In this document: in pieces, positions 1-8,208 of the stretch
Numbering within the stretch: the stretch's first letter is position 1
Layout: each line of letters opens with the position of its first letter
NCBI GenBank assembly: GCA_964622145.1
Contig: CAZUOK010000007.1
Location: forward strand, 1 to 8,208
From: Candidatus Woesearchaeota archaeon
Lineage (GTDB): Archaea; Nanobdellota; Nanobdellia; CAYMVK01; CAYYFB01
Direction: 5' to 3'
Length of the DNA: 8,208 nt
Program-made: the position numbers and the translations under genes
The notes under the pieces: model-generated
What the model saw: only the letters and a program-made list of their open reading frames with translations
Database searches by the model: none
Told to the model about the DNA's origin: nothing

Positions 1-1
1 A

Positions 2-1336
2 AGGAGGAAAGATTCGGAAAGATTATTTTATTTTATTGATCCTCCAGAATTTCATCTTTCTTTAAAAGAGATAAAAGAAATACTGCTTGCTGTTTTGAAG
101 GGGGAAGTATCGAAGGATGTTGAGGATGTATACAAGAGGTACATGGAGGGATTGGGGATTATAGAACTTTTGGTTAGGGATGGGAATGTTGAGGATGTGT
201 TTGTTTCGTCGGTGGATGGAAGGGTGTACGTAAATCACAAGAGGTATGGTCTCATGGATACGAACTTGAAACTAAATAGTAGAGATATATCTAGGATAAA
301 TATAAGGGTAAGGGAGATATCTGGAAGGCCTTTTGATGAGGGAGTACCTGTAATACACCTTTCGCTTGGTAAAGCTAGGATAACTGGGATAAGGGAGCCG
401 TTTACATTCAAGGGTGTTGGTTATGCTGTTAGGATACACGAGAAGGTCTCCTGGACGCTTCCAAAACTAATAAAAAACAGAATGCTCGACGAAAAGGTTG
501 GAGCGCTTCTAAGTGTTCTTGTGGATTCCTTTTCAACAATCCTGATAACTGGTCCTAGAGGTGCTGGGAAGACCTCCCTTCTATCCGCCCTCCTGTTTGA
601 GATACCGAAGACGGAGAGGATAATTGTAATTGAGGATACTGCAGAGCTTCCTGTTGAGGAAATGGTGAGGGCAGGCTATGTGGTTGAGCATATAAGGATA
701 TCTGCTTGGGACAGTGAGTACGAAATGTCTCCAGAAGAAGCCCTTAGAGCTAGTTTAAGACTTGGAGAAAGCTTCCTGATAATAGGGGAGGTTAGGGGGA
801 AGGAGGCGATAACACTGTTTGAGGCTATGAGGATAGGGGCTGCTGGAAACACTGTTATGGGGACCATCCACGGGAGTTCTGCTGAGGATGTCTTTGACAG
901 GATTGTAAACGAAATTGGAATACCAAAGACATCCTTCAAAGCTACGGACTTTATAATATCTGTAAACAATCTCAGGCTTGGAGAAAGTACCAAGAGGATT
1001 AGGAGGCTTATTGAAGTAAAAGAGGTTGGAAAGGATTGGAGGGAAGATCCTAGGATTGAGGGAGGATTCTTGGATATCGTTATCTACGACAGGTTTAGGG
1101 ATAAGTGGATTGTTAAGAACTTGGAAAAATCTTCAGGAATAAGGAAAATACTTTTCGTCAGGGGGTGGAAGTTTGATGAATTTAAAGAAGTTCTAAAGGC
1201 TAGGGAGGAGCTCCTTAGGAAATGTATAAGAAAGGGGATTTTGGATCCCTTGGATTACTCAAAAGCAAAATCTCTTTATTACAAGCTTGTTGAGGAAGGC
1301 TTTTCACCAAAGGAGGCAGTTTCGAAGGTGGTTTGA
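2..1336 (+). CDS. Type IV filament / secretion ATPase of the GspE-PilB-FlaI(ArlI)-VirB11 superfamily, 5'-partial
   Basis: The frame of track ORF 95..1336 stays open back to nt 2 (RRKDSERLFYFIDPPEFHLSLKEIKEILLAV precedes LKGEV). The TTG at 95 is therefore an ORF-caller artefact and the window edge truncates the gene. All four signature boxes are present: Walker A GPRGAGKTS, Asp box IIVIEDTAEL, Walker B FLIIGEVRGKEA, His box GTIHGSSAEDVFDRI. Confidence 0.9.
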   Translation, partial: RRKDSERLFYFIDPPEFHLSLKEIKEILLAVLKGEVSKDVEDVYKRYMEGLGIIELLVRDGNVEDVFVSSVDGRVYVNHKRYGLMDTNLKLNSRDISRINIRVREISGRPFDEGVPVIHLSLGKARITGIREPFTFKGVGYAVRIHEKVSWTLPKLIKNRMLDEKVGALLSVLVDSFSTILITGPRGAGKTSLLSALLFEIPKTERIIVIEDTAELPVEEMVRAGYVVEHIRISAWDSEYEMSPEEALRASLRLGESFLIIGEVRGKEAITLFEAMRIGAAGNTVMGTIHGSSAEDVFDRIVNEIGIPKTSFKATDFIISVNNLRLGESTKRIRRLIEVKEVGKDWREDPRIEGGFLDIVIYDRFRDKWIVKNLEKSSGIRKILFVRGWKFDEFKEVLKAREELLRKCIRKGILDPLDYSKAKSLYYKLVEEGFSPKEAVSKVV

Positions 1337-1485
1337 TGAAGATTGAAAGGATTGCTTTGGAAGAGATTATTAGGATGATAAGAGAAATTGAAAAGGAACT
1401 TCACAGACTAAACCTAGAGATAAGGAGCATAAGGGAGGAATTGGATCTAATAAAGGCAAAACTTTTAAATAAAAGGAGGCAATGA
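1336..1485 (+). CDS. Small 49-aa coiled-coil protein (MKIERIALEEIIRMIREIEKELHRLNLEIRSIREELDLIKAKLLNKRRQ), function unknown
   Basis: Translated by hand; it is too short for the ORF track. Its ATG overlaps the ATPase stop as ATGA (1334-1338), with GGTGG 5 nt upstream. Its last codons contain AAAGGAGG (1472-1479), a candidate SD for the ATG at 1492. Hydrophobic residues follow a heptad pattern. Confidence 0.5.
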   Translation: MKIERIALEEIIRMIREIEKELHRLNLEIRSIREELDLIKAKLLNKRRQ

Positions 1486-1491
1486 AAGGTT

Positions 1492-3435
1492 ATGATCTTC
1501 CCTTTCTTGCCCCTTCCTGGAGTGGGTGGGGGAACCATCGCTAGCAAAGTCATTGCAAAACCTGCAGCTGCAATTGCTAGGAGGATTGGGAGGGCCTTGA
1601 TAGTTAATTCCTCCAATTGGTTTAGGAAGAAATTTGGAGGTCTGAAAGCTTTCTTGAACAAAAACAAAGATTTGGTTTCTTTTGGTCTACAAACTATTGG
1701 AATGCTACTTATGCTTACAAAGATCCCTCCCTTAATGGCAATAGGGTCCGGAATGGTAATAGCTGGAGGACTTATGACAGGTGACTGGAAAACAACACTT
1801 GTAATGCTTGGGATAGGCCTTGTTGGGTTTGGGCACGTTGCAGGATCTTTAAACCTTTCATGGCTGGCTTCGGCTCTTAGTCATCTCGGAAGGGCATCCA
1901 TGTTCCTAAGTTCTGCCGGATTCTTTTTGGATGGGTTCAAGAGGCTTAGAAGAGGGGATATAAGTACTGGATTGGAGAGTATGGCAATGGGACTTCTAGG
2001 ACTCTCTGAGGGGCCTTTTGGGGTGATGACAAGGGGATTGTTAAGGATGATGGCAAGTGGGATGTTCGTGTCCTCCGGAGCTCTCGAAATTAAGAAAGGG
2101 AATGTGGTTTATGGAGCTTTATCAGTAGGGTTTGGTTTGGTGATAGGGAGGGTTGGGAGGATAGAGTACAAGTACGGAAGGGTTGGAGGTGAGGTTGATG
2201 CCTTCCTCAGAGAAAGAGTATACAAAGGAGTGGCTGGAGAAGAGGCTGGAAGAGTTGAAGTCAGAGCTAAGAGGAGAATTCTTAGAAAGATTGCGAGACT
2301 TGGAGGAAAGATTTTCAAGAGAATTGGAAGAAGTTTCAAAGGAATTGGACGCTTTGGAAGAAGAATTCTTTCAAGAGCTGGAAAGATTGGAGACATTATT
2401 GTTAAGGGAATTGGAAAAGTGGGAAAAGCGATTAAGAGATTCTTTATCAAAGGAATTCAAAAAGTGGGAGGAATCTTTGTCAGAGGAATTGGAGAAATTA
2501 GACAAAGTGGTGAAAGAGCTGTTAGACTTTCTGTGAGGGGGGAGAGGTATTTCATAGAAAGATTGGCTAGGAGATACAGATCCTTTGTTGCAAGGACAAC
2601 GGATGGGATACTGAAGTGGTTCTTTGGTAAGGGAAAAAGGGTTGTTGTGGACACAAATTCGATAAGGGGAGGGTTTAAGTTCGTTGATGCAGTTGTCCTG
2701 GAAAAGGGGAAAGGAGGGGTGTACGTTGATGTATACGATGTCAAAACAAGGGCTTTGCCACTGGAAGATATAGGGGAAAAGGCCCTTAATAGATATCTTA
2801 ACAGGGATATTCCAAAGCTTGGATCTGTTGGGGCGAGAAATCTTGAGGGGGCTTTCTCAAAGGTAGATAGGAGATTGTGGAGGGTATTTAGGAATGCCAG
2901 GATAAGGAAAAGGACTCTTGTAATAATAGATGGAGCTAACAAGGTTGTTACACCAAGGTCTTTAGAAAAGAAAGCAAGAATTCTGTCAAAAATCCTAAGG
3001 AGGTCTAGGAGATATGGTGTTAGGATTAAGAGCATAACGAATTACTTGGGACCTGCTGTTGGGAAACCTTTTGTAAGGAAATCAAGGAAGGTGGAAAGGT
3101 CTATTAGAAAAGTATTTGGGAGGATTAGGTCAAGACTAAGGAGGATAAGATCGGGTGTTATCAGAAGATTGTTTAAAAGACCCTCAAGACTGAGATGGTA
3201 TAGAAGTTCTGTTAAAAGAACTTTGAGGAGATCCTTAAGAAGGACTAGAAATAGGATTAGAGGAAGAACATTCTTAAGAAGAGTGAGACCCAAGATATCT
3301 AGAAGGTATGCATCTTTTAGGAGGTCGATTTCTAGGTGGTATAGGAGGAGAAGGTCCTGGATATCCAGGAAGTACAGATCTTTTAGGAGGTCTATCTCGA
3401 GGTGGTTTAGGAGTTTTTTTGGAAGGCGTAGGTAA
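1492..3435 (+). CDS. 647-aa multi-domain membrane protein of unknown function: N-terminal glycine-zipper TM region, cationic G-I-G repeat region, globular middle, arginine-rich tail
   Basis: An uninterrupted 1.9-kb ORF in AT-rich DNA, preceded by an SD motif. Residues ~60-235 carry several Gly-rich hydrophobic segments (GSGMVIAGGLMTG, GIGLVGFGHVAG, AMGLLGLSEGPFG, GALSVGFGLVIGRVG). Residues ~262-340 hold KRIGRSF/KGIGRFG/KGIGKVG/RGIGEIR repeats. By hand count the last 120 residues contain 46 Arg, 7 Lys and 1 Glu. I recognise no family. Confidence 0.8.
   Translation: MIFPFLPLPGVGGGTIASKVIAKPAAAIARRIGRALIVNSSNWFRKKFGGLKAFLNKNKDLVSFGLQTIGMLLMLTKIPPLMAIGSGMVIAGGLMTGDWKTTLVMLGIGLVGFGHVAGSLNLSWLASALSHLGRASMFLSSAGFFLDGFKRLRRGDISTGLESMAMGLLGLSEGPFGVMTRGLLRMMASGMFVSSGALEIKKGNVVYGALSVGFGLVIGRVGRIEYKYGRVGGEVDAFLRERVYKGVAGEEAGRVEVRAKRRILRKIARLGGKIFKRIGRSFKGIGRFGRRILSRAGKIGDIIVKGIGKVGKAIKRFFIKGIQKVGGIFVRGIGEIRQSGERAVRLSVRGERYFIERLARRYRSFVARTTDGILKWFFGKGKRVVVDTNSIRGGFKFVDAVVLEKGKGGVYVDVYDVKTRALPLEDIGEKALNRYLNRDIPKLGSVGARNLEGAFSKVDRRLWRVFRNARIRKRTLVIIDGANKVVTPRSLEKKARILSKILRRSRRYGVRIKSITNYLGPAVGKPFVRKSRKVERSIRKVFGRIRSRLRRIRSGVIRRLFKRPSRLRWYRSSVKRTLRRSLRRTRNRIRGRTFLRRVRPKISRRYASFRRSISRWYRRRRSWISRKYRSFRRSISRWFRSFFGRRR
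2275..2511 (+). repeat. Imperfect purine-rich repeat of roughly 21 nt (heptad-like) inside the 647-aa CDS
   Basis: The core GAATTGGA recurs exactly at 2321, 2342, 2408 and 2486, with variants at 2384 and 2452. It encodes [KR]-G-I-G-[KR] units. The tract is open in two sense frames and on the antisense strand. Confidence 0.6.
3301..3411 (+). repeat. Two copies of a 45-nt unit spaced 66 nt apart, inside the Arg-rich tail
   Basis: 3301-3345 and 3367-3411 align at 36/45 nt by hand. They encode RRYASFRRSISRWYR and RKYRSFRRSISRWFR. Five of the differing codons are synonymous (aga/agg, tat/tac, tcg/tct, att/atc, tct/tcg). Confidence 0.75.
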
Positions 3436-3859
3436 TTTCTCTTTTCAAGAAATCCAATACCTTTCTAACAATCCTCATTTCAACACCTATCTTTCTCATA
3501 ATTCTTTCGATGTCTTTATCTCTTAGCCCAGCCTTTTTCATAGAAAGGATTGTCCTAACAACGTTTCTCAAGTAAATCTCCCTTATCCTCCCTCTCTTTT
3601 CTCCGTACTTGAAGGTCGCTGTGAAGGTCAGTATCCTACTAATAACATCTGAGGAAAAACCGACCGTAAAGGAGTACAGGCAAAGAATTTGTTTTGATGT
3701 TCCGAGGAGGTAGTAGGTGTTTGAAAATAGGTAGGCTGATAGAGATATCAGAATGATAAAGGAAAAGAATTCTCTTAAAACATCATTCCTTGAAGGCCTT
3801 GTGAGGATTTCCCCTAGCAGCACTCCAAGTATAAAAGATATTGCCTCCTCCACAAACAC
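3407..3859 (-). CDS. Small membrane protein (about 3 TM segments) with a basic helical C-terminal domain, function unknown
   Basis: It is the only ORF covering 3436-3860. Hydrophobic segments are ISFILGVLLGEIL, FFSFIILISLSAYLF and ILCLYSFTVGF, followed by GRIREIYLRNVVRTILSMKKAGLRDKDIERIMRKIGVEMRIVRKVLDFLKRE. The track start at 3997 would run through the TATA box and the start of the divergent gene at 3906. GTG starts at 3859 or 3853 fit a leaderless start 22-28 nt from the TATA centre. The 3' end overlaps the 647-aa gene convergently by 29 nt. Confidence 0.55.
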   Translation of the reverse strand: MFVEEAISFILGVLLGEILTRPSRNDVLREFFSFIILISLSAYLFSNTYYLLGTSKQILCLYSFTVGFSSDVISRILTFTATFKYGEKRGRIREIYLRNVVRTILSMKKAGLRDKDIERIMRKIGVEMRIVRKVLDFLKREITYAFQKNS

Positions 3860-3874
3860 CTCTTCCTCGGAAAT

Positions 3875-3886
3875 CCTTATAAAAAG
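3875..3886. promoter_or_regulatory. Shared A/T-rich TATA element between two divergent, apparently leaderless genes
   Basis: CCTTATAAAAAG reads TTATAAAAA on the plus strand and TTTTTATAA on the minus strand. Its centre (~3881) lies 25 nt from the ATG at 3906 and 22-28 nt from the GTGs at 3859/3853. This matches the archaeal spacing of about -26 between TATA box and transcription start. Confidence 0.55.
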
Positions 3887-3905
3887 ATCACCGAAGTAAC
3901 AGGTT

Positions 3906-4403
3906 ATGAGGGGTGTTGAGGCGGCACCTTTGGCGTATGTTCTAGCGGCAATATCTGTTGTAATAGCCCTCTCAATACTCGTCATGATGGGGACCACTAT
4001 AAAGGGAGGGGTGAAAGAGGCTACGGAGACGATAAACGAATCGATAGTTGAGGGTGTTAGGAGGGCATCTCAAGAGTTATCAGAGACTTTTGGAGAGGAG
4101 GATCAGATTGTTATAGATTCTGTTAACAAAACAAATAAGACAATTTACTTCAGTGTTTTCAACTGGAGAAATGCTGAGAAGTTTGATGTAGTAATAAAGG
4201 ATAAGTCTGGAACAGAGGAAAAGAAAGATCTCCAAATTGTTGACTACTGCGAGTCAAAAGATCTGGATGGAGATGGAAAGGTTGATGATCTTAACTGTAA
4301 ATATAAATCGGATCTTGAAAAGATGACATCAGGGATATTGGAGATATATCTGAAGAGTTCTGATGGGAAGGTGCTTTCACAGCAGAAATACATTTACAAG
4401 TGA
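3906..4403 (+). CDS. Pilin-like protein P1, a candidate class III signal peptide protein and possible major subunit
   Basis: The N-terminus MRG-VEAAPLAYVLAAISVVIALSILV is a short basic leader ending in R-G followed by a hydrophobic helix of about 22 residues. The rest is hydrophilic, with sequons NES, NKT and NKT. Cys115 and Cys131 bracket DLDGDGKVDD. It is the first gene after a well-spaced TATA box. Confidence 0.7.
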   Translation: MRGVEAAPLAYVLAAISVVIALSILVMMGTTIKGGVKEATETINESIVEGVRRASQELSETFGEEDQIVIDSVNKTNKTIYFSVFNWRNAEKFDVVIKDKSGTEEKKDLQIVDYCESKDLDGDGKVDDLNCKYKSDLEKMTSGILEIYLKSSDGKVLSQQKYIYK

Positions 4404-4407
4404 TCAG

Positions 4408-4860
4408 ATGGTAGAGGAAGAGATATTTAGACCAATTTTAATTTCCCTTTTGATTACAATGACTGCACTTTTAGGTTCAAATGTAATATACAACTTTATT
4501 CTTTCTCAAAAGATTGGAAGATTCTACAAGCAGGTAAATGATATGATAAGGACGATGATTTATATGAGAAATTATCTTGAGAAACCTTCCTTCATGAGAT
4601 TTTACATAGAAATCCCCTCCTACTGCCATTTATCAATAGATAATAGTTCAAACACAATTTCTTATGGATGTTCTGGAAAGAGGTACAAGATTCCAATGAA
4701 ACAATACAAAATAGAAATACTTTTGATAAAAGGAGGAAAAAATTGCAATATAAACAATGGAAGATTCCTACATGGAGAATACAATATTGTACTGGCTTAT
4801 GTTGAAAAAATTCCAGGGGAAAAACAGGAATGCGTGGTGTATTTTGATGATATCTCTTGA
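4408..4860 (+). CDS. Pilin-like protein P2
   Basis: Starting at the ATG 4 nt after the P1 stop places a hydrophobic helix at the N-terminus (MVEEEIFRPILISLLITMTALLGSNVIYNFIL). The protein has 4 Cys and an NSS sequon. Its C-terminal motif VEKIPGEKQEC resembles SEKIPGKIMRC in P4. The track start at 4363 would overlap P1 by 41 nt and bury the helix. Confidence 0.6.
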   Translation: MVEEEIFRPILISLLITMTALLGSNVIYNFILSQKIGRFYKQVNDMIRTMIYMRNYLEKPSFMRFYIEIPSYCHLSIDNSSNTISYGCSGKRYKIPMKQYKIEILLIKGGKNCNINNGRFLHGEYNIVLAYVEKIPGEKQECVVYFDDIS

Positions 4861-5176
4861 GTTTATCATTGAGATTTTTGAATTCTTCCTGTTCGTCTAT
4901 CTACTTATCTTTTTCCAAAAAACTATTTATTTCTTCAGAGAAATGAAGAAGAGTGTTGAGGGAGAAATGATATGCAGCTTGATAAATTTATTGTATGCAA
5001 AGGGGGGAGAAATAAAGCTACATCTTGTGGAGAAAACAGAAATAAAAGGAAATATACTGAATTATTCTGGATTTATATGCTATTCAAAGGGATTTTGCAA
5101 CGAATTTTTTGGATCAGGTTATATAAAGTTTAGATTGAACGGATCTTGCATAGAGGTGGTGGCTTACAATGATTGA
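4847..5176 (+). CDS. Pilin-like protein P3
   Basis: The in-frame ATG at 4847 gives MISLEFIIEIFEFFLFVYLLIFF. Its xxSxEF start resembles the QxSxEF core of archaeal class III signal peptide proteins. It overlaps P2 by 14 nt and has 4 Cys. The upstream part of the track ORF (4757 onward) lies inside P2. Confidence 0.55.
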   Translation: MISLEFIIEIFEFFLFVYLLIFFQKTIYFFREMKKSVEGEMICSLINLLYAKGGEIKLHLVEKTEIKGNILNYSGFICYSKGFCNEFFGSGYIKFRLNGSCIEVVAYND

Positions 5177-5528
5177 CAGGGTTTTGGAATCCCTAATAAT
5201 CTTATTCTTGTTTTTTATCACAATACTCTCAATTCATGCAAAGATTATGGAAGACTTTAAATATTTTAGAAAACTGTCAAAACTTTTCAGATCGTTATCA
5301 GAAATAGAGCTAATTTGCAAAGAATCAACAGGAAACCCACTTTATTTTAACTTATCAGACATAAAAGAATATGATTTAATTGTTGAGACATTTGAAAATG
5401 GAAGCGTAAGAGTTTACTGTGGAAGTGGTGGTTGTGAGATCTCAGACAGGATCTGTTTTGGGTTGCCAGCTGTTATTTTAAAAGGATCTGAAAAGATACC
5501 TGGGAAAATTATGAGGTGTCTTAAATGA
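5169..5528 (+). CDS. Pilin-like protein P4
   Basis: The N-terminus is MIDRVLESLIILFLFFITILSI. It overlaps the P3 stop by 8 nt, and GAGGTGG lies about 10 nt upstream. It has 5 Cys and sequons NLS and NGS. Confidence 0.6.
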   Translation: MIDRVLESLIILFLFFITILSIHAKIMEDFKYFRKLSKLFRSLSEIELICKESTGNPLYFNLSDIKEYDLIVETFENGSVRVYCGSGGCEISDRICFGLPAVILKGSEKIPGKIMRCLK

Positions 5529-5995
5529 GGTCGATTCCAATAATAATATTTTGGATTCTAGCCCTATCTTTTTTCATATTCTATCCTACAGGAAGATCTC
5601 ATGAAAATCTCCTAAAAACTCTTTACTACAAGGAATATTACAAGAGATTTCTTGACGTCTTGATTGAAACAAGAGAAAATGAACTTAAAGAGCTGGGGAA
5701 TCTTATAAGAGAGAGCGGCTGTTACAATAAAACAGTTGTTGAAAAGATAAGAGAAATTGGGAGTGTATACAAGATGTACAGGAAGGGAAATTATGAAATA
5801 TTATTTGGAATTTCTGTAAGATCAAAGAGCACAAATTGTTACATCTATTACAACAGCACCTGCCTTTGTTTCTATGAAGAATTCAAGGATCCTCTTGGTA
5901 GAGGAGAAGTGATTCTTGTTGAGGAAGCTGGAAAGGTATCCAGGAAGGTAAACATTTCTTTTATCGAGGAGGTCTCAATTGGGTACTTCAGATAA
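5525..5995 (+). CDS. Pilin-like or membrane-anchored extracellular protein P5
   Basis: The N-terminus is MRSIPIIIFWILALSFFIFYP. It overlaps the P4 stop as ATGA, and GAGGTG lies 8 nt upstream. It has 4 Cys and sequons NKT, NST and NIS. Confidence 0.6.
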   Translation: MRSIPIIIFWILALSFFIFYPTGRSHENLLKTLYYKEYYKRFLDVLIETRENELKELGNLIRESGCYNKTVVEKIREIGSVYKMYRKGNYEILFGISVRSKSTNCYIYYNSTCLCFYEEFKDPLGRGEVILVEEAGKVSRKVNISFIEEVSIGYFR

Positions 5996-6008
5996 CTTTA
6001 TTTATACT
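5996..6008 (+). promoter_or_regulatory. TATA element for a leaderless transcript starting at about 6027
   Basis: TTTATTTATA (5997-6006) is centred about 25-26 nt upstream of the ATG at 6027, directly after the P5 stop. Confidence 0.5.
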
Positions 6009-6026
6009 TCTTGAGAATCTGTTTTT

Positions 6027-6152
6027 ATGTCCGTGCTTGGAGTGATAATATTGATATTGATCATAACGTTCTTCACGATATATATCGGGATGAGATATCA
6101 GCTGGAACAGAAGATATTGGAGATTGTTGGAGAGGGATTGAAGATATGCTAG
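6027..6152 (+). CDS. 41-aa single-TM protein ([41 protein letters not shown])
   Basis: Translated by hand; it is absent from the track. The ATG sits at the predicted leaderless start, and the N-terminal hydrophobic helix is clean. The competing track frame (6011, TTG start) reads as non-protein-like sequence over this stretch. Confidence 0.4.
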   Translation: MSVLGVIILILIITFFTIYIGMRYQLEQKILEIVGEGLKIC

Positions 6153-6457
6153 ATTTTTTGTTGTTTTTTTCCGGAATACTCATGGCAGAGATGTTATCCC
6201 CAGGGTTTGAATTTTATGAGGAACTGCTCCACGTATTCCTAATCGTTCTTATCGCTGTTACCGTTTTTGGAAAAGATTACAAGATACTTGGAAGTCCTTA
6301 CCTCTACAACTTTTTCTCAGGATTTTCATCAACCATTTCATCAATGTTCCTCGTACAATCTTTCAAATGCTTAAAGCAAATATTAAAGAGAAGGAGGAGG
6401 ATGGAGATTGCTAGGAAAATTAGATTGCTAAGGGATATAAGGGAAAGGCTAAGATAG
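6146..6457 (+). CDS. 103-aa membrane protein with a basic C-terminal helix, function unknown
   Basis: This is the internal ATG of track ORF 6011..6457. It overlaps the 41-aa ORF stop as ATGCTAG. Hydrophobic segments are [16 protein letters not shown] and [15 protein letters not shown], and the tail is [23 protein letters not shown]. The 3' end overlaps uL24 convergently by 9 nt. Confidence 0.45.
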
Positions 6458-6877
6458 TATTTGCTGTATTTCTTCCTCACTAAATCCTTTTGCTCTCAAT
6501 CTTCTTTCTATCACCTTTTTTCTCTCAGGATCTGAAAGATCAAGCTCAACAATCTCAACCTTTGATGGATGGATGGGATATTTTACCCTAGTACCATCCT
6601 TCTTTACTATTTCAGCCTCCTCAACAAATATCCTATACCTCTCGTAGTCCACATCAACAACCTTTCCAACAACATCGTAGAATTTTCCTCTAACAATCCT
6701 AACAACGTCCCCTTTCCTTACAGGAATGTTCCTTATCTTGTACTTCTTTCTCAACTCCTTTGAAAGAGGTGCGCTCATAAGTTTTCTCCTTATGTGAAGT
6801 GGAGCATAATAAATGTACTTCCTCTGTTTCCTTGGTTGGATGGATCTTATCCAGCTCCTGCTCCACTTCTTTTTCAT
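6449..6877 (-). CDS. rpl24: Ribosomal protein uL24 (archaeal L24)
   Basis: It carries the archaeal L24 hallmarks [47 protein letters not shown] and [17 protein letters not shown]. The start abuts the uL14 stop (TAGATG), with AGGTGGTGG upstream. Confidence 0.93.
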
Positions 6878-7279
6878 CTACACCACCACCTTTGCAATCT
6901 TTCCAAGTGGAAGGAACCTTTGTACAGCCTCCCTAGCAACAGGACCTTTTATAATAGAGCCTACAGGCTCTCCTTCCTCATTTTTGACAAGAACGCATGC
7001 GTTGTCCTCAAATTTTATTCTTGTCCCATCAGCCCTTCTATATTCTTTTCTTGTCCTTATTATAACTGCCATAACAACCTTGTGCTTCATTTCTGGTTTT
7101 CCTTCTATCACAGAACCCCAGACCAAATCCGCAATCCCAGCAGCTGGTAATCTTCTCCTAACTCCATGGTATCCTTTTACAGCAATTATTTTTATCTTCT
7201 TTGCCCCTGAATTGTCCGCAACATCAACAACAGCTCCAACAGGCAAGCATCTAACAACACTTGCCTTTATTGGTCTCAT
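6878..7279 (-). CDS. rpl14: Ribosomal protein uL14 (archaeal L14)
   Basis: Motifs are ADNSGAKKIKIIAVKGYHGVRRRLPAAGIADLV, RKEYRRADGTRIKFEDNACVLV and IKGPVAREA. The preferred start is MRPIKA at 7279, which overlaps the uS17 stop as ATGA and follows AGGTGGTG. The track start at 7333 lies inside uS17. Confidence 0.93.
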   Translation of the reverse strand: MRPIKASVVRCLPVGAVVDVADNSGAKKIKIIAVKGYHGVRRRLPAAGIADLVWGSVIEGKPEMKHKVVMAVIIRTRKEYRRADGTRIKFEDNACVLVKNEEGEPVGSIIKGPVAREAVQRFLPLGKIAKVVV

Positions 7280-7605
7280 TTCTTCACCACCTGCAAAACA
7301 ACAAAGTGCTTTGCCTTTGACAGTGGTCTGCATTCCCCAATTATTACCTCATCACCTTCCTTTGCATTTATACAAGGGGGGTTGTGAGCAAAGACCTTCG
7401 TCTTCCTCCTCTCATATCTTTCGTACTTTTTCAAATAGTAAAGCCTTTCCCACTCAACAACAACTGTTTTATCCATCTTGGCTTTTTTCACAATTCCTCT
7501 GAATATCCTGCCTCTAACGGACAGTTTTCCATGCCAAGGACAGTAAGGATCATCACACTCCCTTTCGGGAGGTTCTATTCCCTCTATTCCTATATCTCTA
7601 ACCAT
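7276..7605 (-). CDS. rps17: Ribosomal protein uS17 (archaeal S17)
   Basis: Motifs are ECDDPYCPWHGKLSVRGRIF, KMDKTVVVEWE, KYERYERRKTKVFAHNPPCINAKEGD and ECRPLSKAKHFVV. Confidence 0.93.
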   Translation of the reverse strand: MVRDIGIEGIEPPERECDDPYCPWHGKLSVRGRIFRGIVKKAKMDKTVVVEWERLYYLKKYERYERRKTKVFAHNPPCINAKEGDEVIIGECRPLSKAKHFVVLQVVKK

Positions 7606-7621
7606 GCTTCTTCTAGGAAAT

Positions 7622-7951
7622 TCAATCTTTTTTTAAACCTTTTGTTTCAATGGCCTTTAAGAGGAGCTCAAAATAACTCTTCCTAACCTTTATCCTCTTC
7701 TTTAACCTCTCCTCAGGTCTTCCAACGAGGATTTCTCCAGGTATGTATACCTTAACATTCCCAAGATCAAACTCGAATACACAGATTTCTTTTAAAATCC
7801 TCTTGATACCTTTTTCCGTCCTTATTAGTATTGTATTCCTTGTTTCATCAACAATTTTCCCCTCTATTCCAATACAATCTTTGTTTTTTGACCAAACAAC
7901 TTTGCATTTCAACCCTATTATTTCATGCCATGGAAGCTCTGAAGGTTTCAC
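7622..7951 (-). CDS. rnp1: RNase P protein component 1 (Rpp29/Pop4 family)
   Basis: Motifs are IIGLKCKVVWSKNKDCIGIEGKIVDETRNTILIRT and ILVGRPEERLKKR. It occupies the conserved position directly upstream of uS17. The start is a GTG at 7951. Confidence 0.85.
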   Translation of the reverse strand: MKPSELPWHEIIGLKCKVVWSKNKDCIGIEGKIVDETRNTILIRTEKGIKRILKEICVFEFDLGNVKVYIPGEILVGRPEERLKKRIKVRKSYFELLLKAIETKGLKKD

Positions 7952-7969
7952 AAATCCTACTTGTCTTAA

Positions 7970-7983
7970 AAGAAAATAAAAGT
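7970..7983 (-). promoter_or_regulatory. TATA element for a leaderless rnp1-rps17-rpl14-rpl24 transcript; the same T-tract could terminate the upstream tRNA fragment
   Basis: The minus strand reads CTTTTATTTTCTTTT. TTTTATTTT (7981-7973) is centred 26 nt from the GTG at 7951. The tract begins 9 nt after the tRNA discriminator base. Confidence 0.5.
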
Positions 7984-7990
7984 TTTGGAG

Positions 7991-8062
7991 TGGGCCCGGC
8001 GGGATTTGAACCCGCGACCATCCGGTTAAGAGCCGGACGCTTTAGGCGGAGGGTGGTGGCCT
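7991..8062 (-). tRNA. 3' fragment of a split (or very long-intron) tRNA-Lys(CUU), preceded by a GC-rich leader
   Basis: The minus strand reads AGGCCACCACCCTCCGCC-TAAAGCG-TCCGG-CTCTTAA-CCGGA-TGGTC-GCGGG-TTCAAAT-CCCGC-CGGGCCC-A. The anticodon arm is perfect, with CTT at 8030-8028. The T arm with TTCAAAT loop, the 3' acceptor strand and discriminator A (7991) are all present. No 5' acceptor strand GGGCCCG and no D-arm 5' half occur upstream through 8208. The tRNA-like sequence stops at about nt 21-23 (~8043) and gives way to the leader at 8044-8062. Confidence 0.75.
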
Positions 8063-8208
8063 GGACTTTATTGGTTTTACAAGATTTAAAAACTTTTCTA
8101 AGGACCTTTGATCCGTTATTCTGATAACATAACAGCCCCTATCAAATCCTATCTTTGTTGTCTTTATTTTGAAGTGTTCCATAACTCTTTTAAAAAAGAG
8201 TACAGGGT
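8042..8208 (-). CDS. Possible 3' end of a gene running off the right edge (...PVLFFKRVMEHFKIKTTKIGFDRGCYVIRITDQRSLEKFLNLVKPIKSRPPPSA), unresolved
   Basis: By hand translation the minus-strand frame is open from the window edge to TAA at 8044-8042. It overlaps the tRNA promoter and leader, and the final KSRPPPSA is simply the leader translated. No motif is recognised. Confidence 0.2.
   Translation of the reverse strand, partial: PVLFFKRVMEHFKIKTTKIGFDRGCYVIRITDQRSLEKFLNLVKPIKSRPPPSA
8083..8099 (-). promoter_or_regulatory. BRE/TATA promoter dedicated to the tRNA 3' fragment
   Basis: The minus strand reads AGAAAAG-TTTTTAAAT (8099-8084). The TATA centre (~8088) lies 26 nt upstream of 8062, exactly where the GC-rich leader begins. 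Confidence 0.55.

Follow-up and report, generated by a model that had tools for sequence, protein, structure and literature searches.

The probable 3′ half of an archaeal tRNA-Lys(CUU) gene split in the D-stem

The tRNA-Lys(CUU) piece

The window analyzed here, a stretch of 8,208 nt (contig CAZUOK010000007.1 of a Candidatus Woesearchaeota archaeon, positions 1 to 8,208), carries close to its right-hand end, on the minus strand, the 3′ part of a tRNA-Lys(CUU) gene. This 3′ exon comprises tRNA positions 23-73 (7991-8041, minus strand), as delimited by Rfam and by alignment with intact and intron-bearing homologues. It is preceded by a 21-nt leader and a promoter-like motif, both of which lie within the last codons of a protein-coding gene (hereafter gene X), and it is followed downstream by the leaderless GTG start of the gene for the RNase P protein Rpp29 (7951) and then by the genes for S17, L14, and L24. 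We regard the piece as the probable 3′ half, separately transcribed, of a split archaeal tRNA-Lys(CUU) broken between positions 22 and 23.

Rfam recognizes a partial tRNA at 8047-7999 (minus strand), with 30.3 bits against a gathering score of 29 and with model positions 10-63 covered. Within the piece, A23-G24-C25 corresponds to 8041-8039 and G26 to 8038; the anticodon arm reads UCCGG-CUCUUAA-CCGGA, in which CUU (8030-8028) is the anticodon; UGGUC forms the variable loop and GCGGG-UUCAAAU-CCCGC the T-arm; the acceptor 3′ strand CGGGCCC (7998-7992) is followed by the discriminator A73 (A7991), and CCA is not encoded. A preliminary description of this DNA had reported a stand-alone 3′ piece of tRNA-Lys(CUU), intact from about nucleotide 22 to the discriminator and with the anticodon CUU. 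Rfam and the alignment bear this out for the minus strand, and the 5′ part is indeed absent from the window.

ARAGORN finds no complete tRNA in the 8.2-kb window, nor in the 3′ piece alone, and returns a canonical tRNA-Lys once the piece is joined to a model 5′ exon. Since the self-folding of the piece is no better than that of shuffled sequence (z = -1.3), a D-armless tRNA formed by the piece itself was ruled out. Rfam gives no match to a group I intron at E ≤ 10. Termination of the transcript is likely at three T4 tracts (7968-7981, minus strand), which lie 10-23 nt past the tRNA end, resemble an oligo-T terminator, and overlap the TATA box of the Rpp29 gene. Among the lysine codons of the window genes, AAG is commoner than AAA (100 vs. 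81).

Promoter and leader

Upstream of the piece lies a purine-rich GAAAAG (8093-8098, minus strand), similar to a transcription factor B recognition element (BRE) and part of the motif AAAASTTTTW; this element is followed by the TATA box TTTTTAAA (8085-8092, minus strand). The TATA box ends 23 nt before A8062, with 22 nt between its end and this base; from the spacing, A8062, an A after C, is the predicted transcription start and the first base of the leader. The motif AAAASTTTTW, a degenerate consensus partly defined from the tested site itself, has just three occurrences in the window. The exact 10-mer AAAACTTTTA is found twice, at 1458(+), 34 nt ahead of the ATG of the gene starting at 1492, and at 7986(-), 35 nt before the Rpp29 GTG at 7951, and the related AAAAGTTTTT starts at 8097(-), 35 nt ahead of A8062. 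With up to 2 mismatches allowed, the 10-mer of the protein genes has 40 matches in 16.4 kb, which puts at about 1% the probability that such a motif falls by chance within ±2 nt of the correct spacing. Across the window, TATA 8-mers end 22-23 nt before the start points 1492, 3906, 7951, and 8062, as expected from the geometry of leaderless transcription in archaea. The promoter-like motifs at 1458-1470(+), 3877-3884(+), and 7986-7974(-) suggest that this organism has leaderless mRNAs and a clearly defined BRE/TATA consensus. The motif of the tRNA piece is also near-palindromic: the plus strand at 8089-8098 reads AAAACTTTTC, one mismatch from the protein-gene motif, and divergent transcription toward the window end is possible.

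A GC-rich stretch, AGGCCACCACCCTCCGCC (8062-8045, minus strand), starts exactly at the predicted transcription start. Only 4 of the 8192 17-mers in the window contain at least 14 G+C; three of them fall in the tRNA acceptor and T-stem, and the fourth is the leader. The preliminary description had claimed both that a GC-rich stretch replaces the 5′ side of the tRNA and that the piece has its own BRE/TATA promoter. The stretch is unique outside the tRNA body in the window, and the 35-nt spacing is like that of two leaderless genes. Its statements on the sequence are correct as well, although it had missed that promoter and leader both overlap an open reading frame (ORF) that runs in from the window edge to the TAA at 8044-8042.

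The 21-nt leader can be divided into one base, a 14-nt GC-rich strand GGCCACCACCCUCC (8048-8061, minus strand), the four bases GCCU, and the two bases AA. The 14-nt strand is the proposed h′ helix strand and would pair with GGAGGGUGGUGGCC of a partner RNA. The leaders of known 3′ halves measure about 16-23 nt (pre-tRNA minus mature length, table of PMC3218864), and the trans-duplexes of known split tRNAs 12-14 bp (PMC3218864). By this comparison the layout of the leader matches that of known split-tRNA 3′ halves. GGCCACCACCCUCC is left as the strand of an outer helix; such a helix is needed only where the RNA ends lie far apart, and short cis introns do without it.

Position of the break

Homologues were collected in a metagenome scan with a 20-mer from C25 to position 43, which returned at least 120 loci (numbered with the prefix L), nearly all of them intact tRNA-Lys(CUU) genes. 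Two of these, L036 and L118, match the window fully at positions 23-65 and differ from it solely in the acceptor strand. The intact gene of L056 has the same D-stem strand UAAAGCG as the window, and AAGCGUCCG, which stands upstream of G31 in the window and is identical in L056, represents the native tRNA positions 22-30. Because the nine bases before G31 are native tRNA, a junction at 30/31 is excluded; the Staphylothermus-type junction was rejected on the further ground that the bases before position 31 cannot self-pair into a helix, the native sequence reaching to 22/23.

Homologous genes interrupted at the same site place the break more closely. L071 (locus 27-114) reads GGGCCGGTAGCTCAGCCCGGGTAG|ATATGTTGCCTAA|AGCG, with an intron of 13 nt, and L066 (minus strand) reads ...GGTAG|AAGTTATCTACACTGCTTAA|AGCG..., to be compared with ...CCCTCCGCCTAA|AGCG... 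in the window. The introns end in GCCUAA|AGCG in L071 and in GCUUAA|AGCG in L066, and removal of the inserts in silico gives canonical tRNA-Lys(CUU) in both (ARAGORN). The most plausible position of the break is 22/23, in the D-stem, because homologous genes carry introns at this very place; the location in the D-arm proposed in the preliminary description is thereby supported and narrowed. The 22/23 junction preserves the C13-G22 pair, and 22/23 is a documented site of non-canonical archaeal bulge-helix-bulge (BHB) introns (PMC4090602). L066 carries a second intron further upstream, its two introns lying in the D-loop and D-stem, and L030 (minus strand) has a D-loop intron together with a T-loop intron of about 110 nt.

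The 3′ side of a BHB motif can be laid out in the window as GCCU plus AA|A23, matching the intron end of L071. In this arrangement GCCU (8044-8047, minus strand) would be one strand of the central 4-bp helix, its expected partner being RGGY of the D-loop, which overlaps G18-G19-U20 and is required by a 22/23 junction. AA (8042-8043, minus strand) would form the first two bases of the 3′ bulge, with a cut predicted after A8042. The L071 intron has the same GCCU before UAA|AGCG, which is able to form pairs with the D-loop bases GGGU (G18, G19, U20), and the AA|N bulge recurs in L071, L066, L132, and L133. A junction at 19/20, as in L132 and L133, was rejected for the window, since the D-loop partner YGGR that it would need before G18 G19 is atypical.

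Search for the 5′ part

No 5′ tRNA portion was detected in the 146 nt upstream of the leader or within the 8.2 kb on either strand. The lack of a GGGCCCG acceptor strand upstream, already remarked on in the preliminary description, holds for the whole window, and no complement of the GC-rich leader was found in it on either strand. The one 11-bp match to the leader complement at 5148-5165(+) was rejected as a partner; it lies inside an ORF and has no tRNA sequence ahead of it. The search for a complementary 5′ piece that had been proposed as a check was extended with the pattern GGGCCCGTRGC-N5-35-GGRGGGTGGTGG to 185,579 species-representative genomes. It yielded seven matches, all in bacterial contigs with 61-74% GC and judged to be due to chance. 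In a viral collection, the leader 17-mer gave nine chance matches, in contigs of 57-69% GC. In the relatives whose Rpp29 is 67-73% identical to that of the window (L008-L011), another gene lies upstream of Rpp29 and there is no tRNA at that place. No gene for EndA was found in the window or in the related loci examined.

Gene X

The visible part of gene X comprises its last 54 codons (8045-8206, minus strand), in a frame open to the window edge. Its stop codon TAA (8044-8042) is the UAA of the tRNA junction, and the promoter and leader double as its codons (...LEKFLNLVKPIKSRPPPSA), the leader encoding the tail SRPPPSA. A word-indexed protein search gave no relatives of gene X, and none were found in the viral collection. 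An exhaustive HMMER search of 1.84 billion representatives gave one homologue, P0088 (72 aa, 48% identity, E 2.9e-5), and a profile search added a second, P0090. The latter matches the Pfam family LAGLIDADG_3 with 23.5 bits (cut-off 22.5), and the tail of gene X in the window does so with E 0.08. An AlphaFold2 model (predicted local distance difference test score 82.6) has the order β-α-β-β-α-β; Foldseek returned only ACT/ferredoxin-like chains for it (E ≥ 0.007), and a profile search of the PDB gave no endonuclease match. From these scores, the designation of gene X as a LAGLIDADG-like protein is borderline.

The gene X family is very rare, with three members among about 15 billion proteins: that of the window, one in L132 (7375-7720), from which a full length of about 350 nt is judged, and one in L133 (1-313). 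All three immediately precede, in the same orientation, a tRNA-Lys(CUU) sequence with an interrupted D-arm. Gene X of L132 stops 24 nt short of a tRNA-Lys(CUU) gene whose D-loop contains an intron of 25 nt. In L133, gene X and the start of a tRNA-Lys(CUU) gene (303-398) share 10 nt; this tRNA gene has a D-loop intron of 20 nt and is followed by the gene for a class I lysyl-tRNA synthetase (483-803). Owing to its intron, the tRNA of L133 is miscalled by ARAGORN as tRNA-Ser(CGA). In both contigs gene X is preceded by an ORF in another frame that overlaps it by 8 nt, and in L132 this ORF ends in the LAGLIDADG-like GLAEVYGAMLGDG. A tblastn search showed the family to be absent from the other roughly 118 tRNA-Lys(CUU) loci. 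The linkage of gene X and tRNA may reflect synteny within a lineage and not mobility, because L133 belongs to the same ENA accession range as contigs with an Rpp29 73% identical to that of the window and has a similar G+C content. L132 (5059-7330) also contains a tyrosine integrase gene 1.6 kb upstream of gene X and two 34-nt direct repeats (6767-6800 and 7296-7329) that flank a PadR gene, possibly a small mobile cassette beside the tRNA; no tRNA-derived direct repeats were found in L132.

Other genes of the window and lineage

The best PDB matches of uL14 are 4v4n, 4v6u, and 6skf, which we take to be ribosomes of Methanocaldococcus and Thermococcales, and Sulfolobus scores lower. The Rpp29-S17-L14-L24 operon (6449-7951, minus strand) stops after L24, without S4e or L5, and is followed by genes on the opposite strand; the ribosomal operon is broken as in reduced archaeal genomes. 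On the plus strand, the window encodes an FlaI/TadA-like secretion ATPase (95-1336), a 647-aa protein (1492-3435) whose N-terminal half is hydrophobic and whose C-terminal tail is extremely rich in Arg, and a series of overlapping small ORFs with 30-36% G+C and no family matches (4363-6457). The region 95-6457(+) is possibly a locus for a pilus or for secretion, or else an integrated element.

Interpretation of the locus

A separately transcribed 3′ half of a split tRNA-Lys(CUU), broken at 22/23, is the interpretation we favor and consider probable. It explains the promoter, the unique GC-rich strand that begins where transcription is predicted to start, the intact exon, and the layout of the leader. 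The BRE/TATA element (8098-8085) would start transcription at A8062, as suggested by its spacing, and the RNA would consist of the 21-nt leader and tRNA positions 23-73 and end at the downstream T tracts. GGCCACCACCCUCC would anneal to a complementary trailer behind a 5′ piece of ~22 nt, so far not found, that would bear the acceptor 5′ strand, the 5′ strand of the D-stem, and the D-loop. GCCU and the G18-G19-U20 region of the D-loop would form the 4-bp BHB helix, with AA|A23 as the 3′ bulge; the splicing endonuclease would cut after A8042, an RtcB-type ligase would join G22 to A23, and RNase P, RNase Z, and the CCA-adding enzyme would finish the tRNA ends. Endonuclease cleavage, ligation, and end finishing are established steps in the maturation of split tRNAs. 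The 5′ piece could be encoded at any place in the genome. Should it lie just upstream of gene X, a split gene and a gene with a long intron would merge into an arrangement of adjacent halves like that of Aeropyrum pernix tRNA-Asp.

Several points weigh against a split gene. The partner was not found, so that the duplex and the complete BHB motif stay putative, and the visible sequence upstream of the leader amounts to 146 nt only; the absence of an archaeal match from the scan of 185,579 genomes counts weakly, as the source genome may not be in the set. The genome may also have an intact tRNA-Lys(CUU) gene elsewhere. The short intron of L071 is not a strict BHB in its minimum-energy fold. Finally, the promoter and leader lie inside a conserved ORF, and the AT-rich motif may partly be coding (EKFLN).

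The exon could instead belong to an unsplit gene whose 5′ exon lies a few hundred bases beyond 8208. Gene X would then be carried by a long BHB intron, and the 14-nt strand would close a stem in cis, where a BHB motif would likewise need an adjoining long stem. In keeping with this arrangement, which we consider unlikely, an ORF with a borderline LAGLIDADG_3 match ends at the UAA of the junction, gene X at full length would measure only about 350 nt, and BHB introns bearing LAGLIDADG ORFs are known in archaeal rRNA genes (PMC6125680). The position of the promoter and leader over the 3′ end of a conserved protein gene suits both a long intron and adjacent halves. However, the overlap of ORF and tRNA does not discriminate between the readings, because gene X of L133 also reads into the tRNA though it clearly lies outside it, and in both other members of the family gene X stands upstream of a complete tRNA and not in its intron. 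A well-spaced promoter in front of the stem strand would be a coincidence with a chance of about 1%, Foldseek did not bear out the LAGLIDADG fold, and no ORF-bearing BHB intron in a tRNA gene was found in the literature, as far as our limited coverage of it extends.

It also seems doubtful that the piece is a non-functional remnant whose first 22 nt were lost or displaced through a deletion or through a mobile element that integrated or recombined, while another tRNA-Lys reads AAG. Fragments of tRNAs left by mobile elements are documented, e.g., the tRNA-Thr of Caldiarchaeum subterraneum (PMC3293823). The window does resemble the order of gene X and a complete tRNA in L132 and L133 with the 5′ part of the tRNA lost; UAAAGCG could be native U20-G26 as in L056, leaving only GCC in common with the L071 intron; and L132 has its tyrosine integrase gene upstream of gene X. 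Such a loss would nevertheless leave unexplained a promoter at the correct distance and a 14-nt strand at the GC level of tRNA stems, and the exon shows no decay relative to intact genes. Neither an integrase nor a further copy of the tRNA segment, such as an att site would provide, is present in the window, and L132 is likewise devoid of tRNA-derived direct repeats. We see very little probability in a permuted tRNA gene or in a tRNA-like element acting in 3′-end processing or stabilization of the gene X mRNA. Thermofilum pendens has permuted tRNAs (PMC3218864), in Staphylothermus marinus the 3′ half precedes the 5′ half by 4.8 kb on the same strand (PMC3218864), and the ORF of gene X and the tRNA piece are physically fused. 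On the other side, the 8 kb downstream on the minus strand contain no 5′ tRNA sequence, the piece folds no better than shuffled sequence, and ARAGORN sees no tRNA in it.

A more speculative idea, which we hold to be unlikely, is that gene X is a mobile, decaying gene for a LAGLIDADG-type endonuclease that targets the D-arm of tRNA-Lys(CUU), and that its insertion turned a short BHB intron into a split gene or into the first ORF-bearing BHB intron of a tRNA. If true, gene X would be a direct example of a mobile element creating split tRNAs. Its linkage to interrupted tRNA genes in three divergent contigs makes it a concrete candidate for an agent of tRNA disruption. Split tRNAs have a key place in the debate over the history of tRNA genes, which may have been assembled from pieces or fragmented late by mobile elements. 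Standard tRNA finders miss the gene described here, so that such genomes would seem to be without tRNA-Lys(CUU).

Comparison with known split and interrupted tRNAs

A split tRNA-Lys(CUU) in Nanoarchaeum equitans was reportedly described by Randau in 2005, and the split and tri-split tRNAs of Caldivirga maquilingensis are said to have been described by Fujishima in 2009. Only about seven genomes of hyperthermophilic archaea are documented to contain split tRNAs (PMC4033280). Both split tRNAs, including tRNA-Lys(CUU), and junctions outside the anticodon loop (25/26, 29/30, and 30/31) are established. The preliminary description was right that trans-joined split tRNAs are known, among others in N. 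equitans, but its view of 37/38 as the site of the split does not hold throughout: split tRNA-Lys(CUU), known in N. equitans and in Staphylothermus marinus and S. hellenicus, is broken at 30/31 (PMC3218864), and the junctions of C. maquilingensis are 25/26, 29/30, and 37/38 (PMC4090602). New here, if the interpretation is correct, would be the 22/23 junction, a 5′ piece of only 22 nt, the embedding of promoter and leader in a protein gene, the linkage to gene X, and the occurrence of a split tRNA in a lineage that is not crenarchaeal by ribosomal-protein similarity.

The piece is most readily compared with the tRNA-Lys(CUU) of N. equitans and Staphylothermus, with which it shares the isoacceptor, a 3′ piece containing the anticodon and having its own promoter, a leader of about 17-22 nt composed of a GC-rich strand of 12-14 nt, a 4-nt helix strand, and a bulge, and a GC-rich tRNA of the hyperthermophile type in an AT-rich genome. 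It differs from them in the junction, which is 30/31 with a 43-nt 3′ piece there, whereas here the sequence is native to at least position 23 and the piece measures 51 nt. In addition, the window has its promoter and leader overlapping a protein gene, and the partner, known in those genomes, was not found. N. equitans is described as lacking RNase P (PMC3491384), whereas here the Rpp29 gene adjoins the piece and RNase P is probably present.

C. maquilingensis likewise provides trans-joined pieces with non-canonical, intron-site junctions, including that at the boundary of D-stem and anticodon stem (25/26), and shows that very short 5′ pieces can work (PMC4090602). The tRNAs and the junction are different, a break at 22/23 would give the shortest 5′ piece so far, and the lineage of the window is not crenarchaeal by uL14 similarity. 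The halves of the A. pernix tRNA-Asp(GUC) are adjacent, about 160 nt apart, each with a promoter, and are joined at 37/38 (PMC3218864). If the 5′ piece of the window were encoded just upstream of gene X, the two loci would share two promoters, close halves on one strand, and a structure intermediate between an intron-containing and a split gene; no protein gene between the halves has been reported in A. pernix.

Among interrupted genes, the BHB introns of archaeal rRNA combine a long terminal stem with a LAGLIDADG ORF, but they reside in rRNA and not in tRNA genes. The cis introns at 22/23 or 19/20 in the tRNA-Lys(CUU) genes of L071, L066, L030, L132, and L133 differ from the window in their length (13-36 nt), in having no long GC stem, and in following immediately upon the 5′ exon. 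These genes nevertheless resemble the window in the site of interruption (22/23 or 19/20), and L071 does so also in the end GCCUAA|AGCG. The existence of homologues with ordinary short introns at the same site fits the view that split tRNA genes derive from intron-containing ones.

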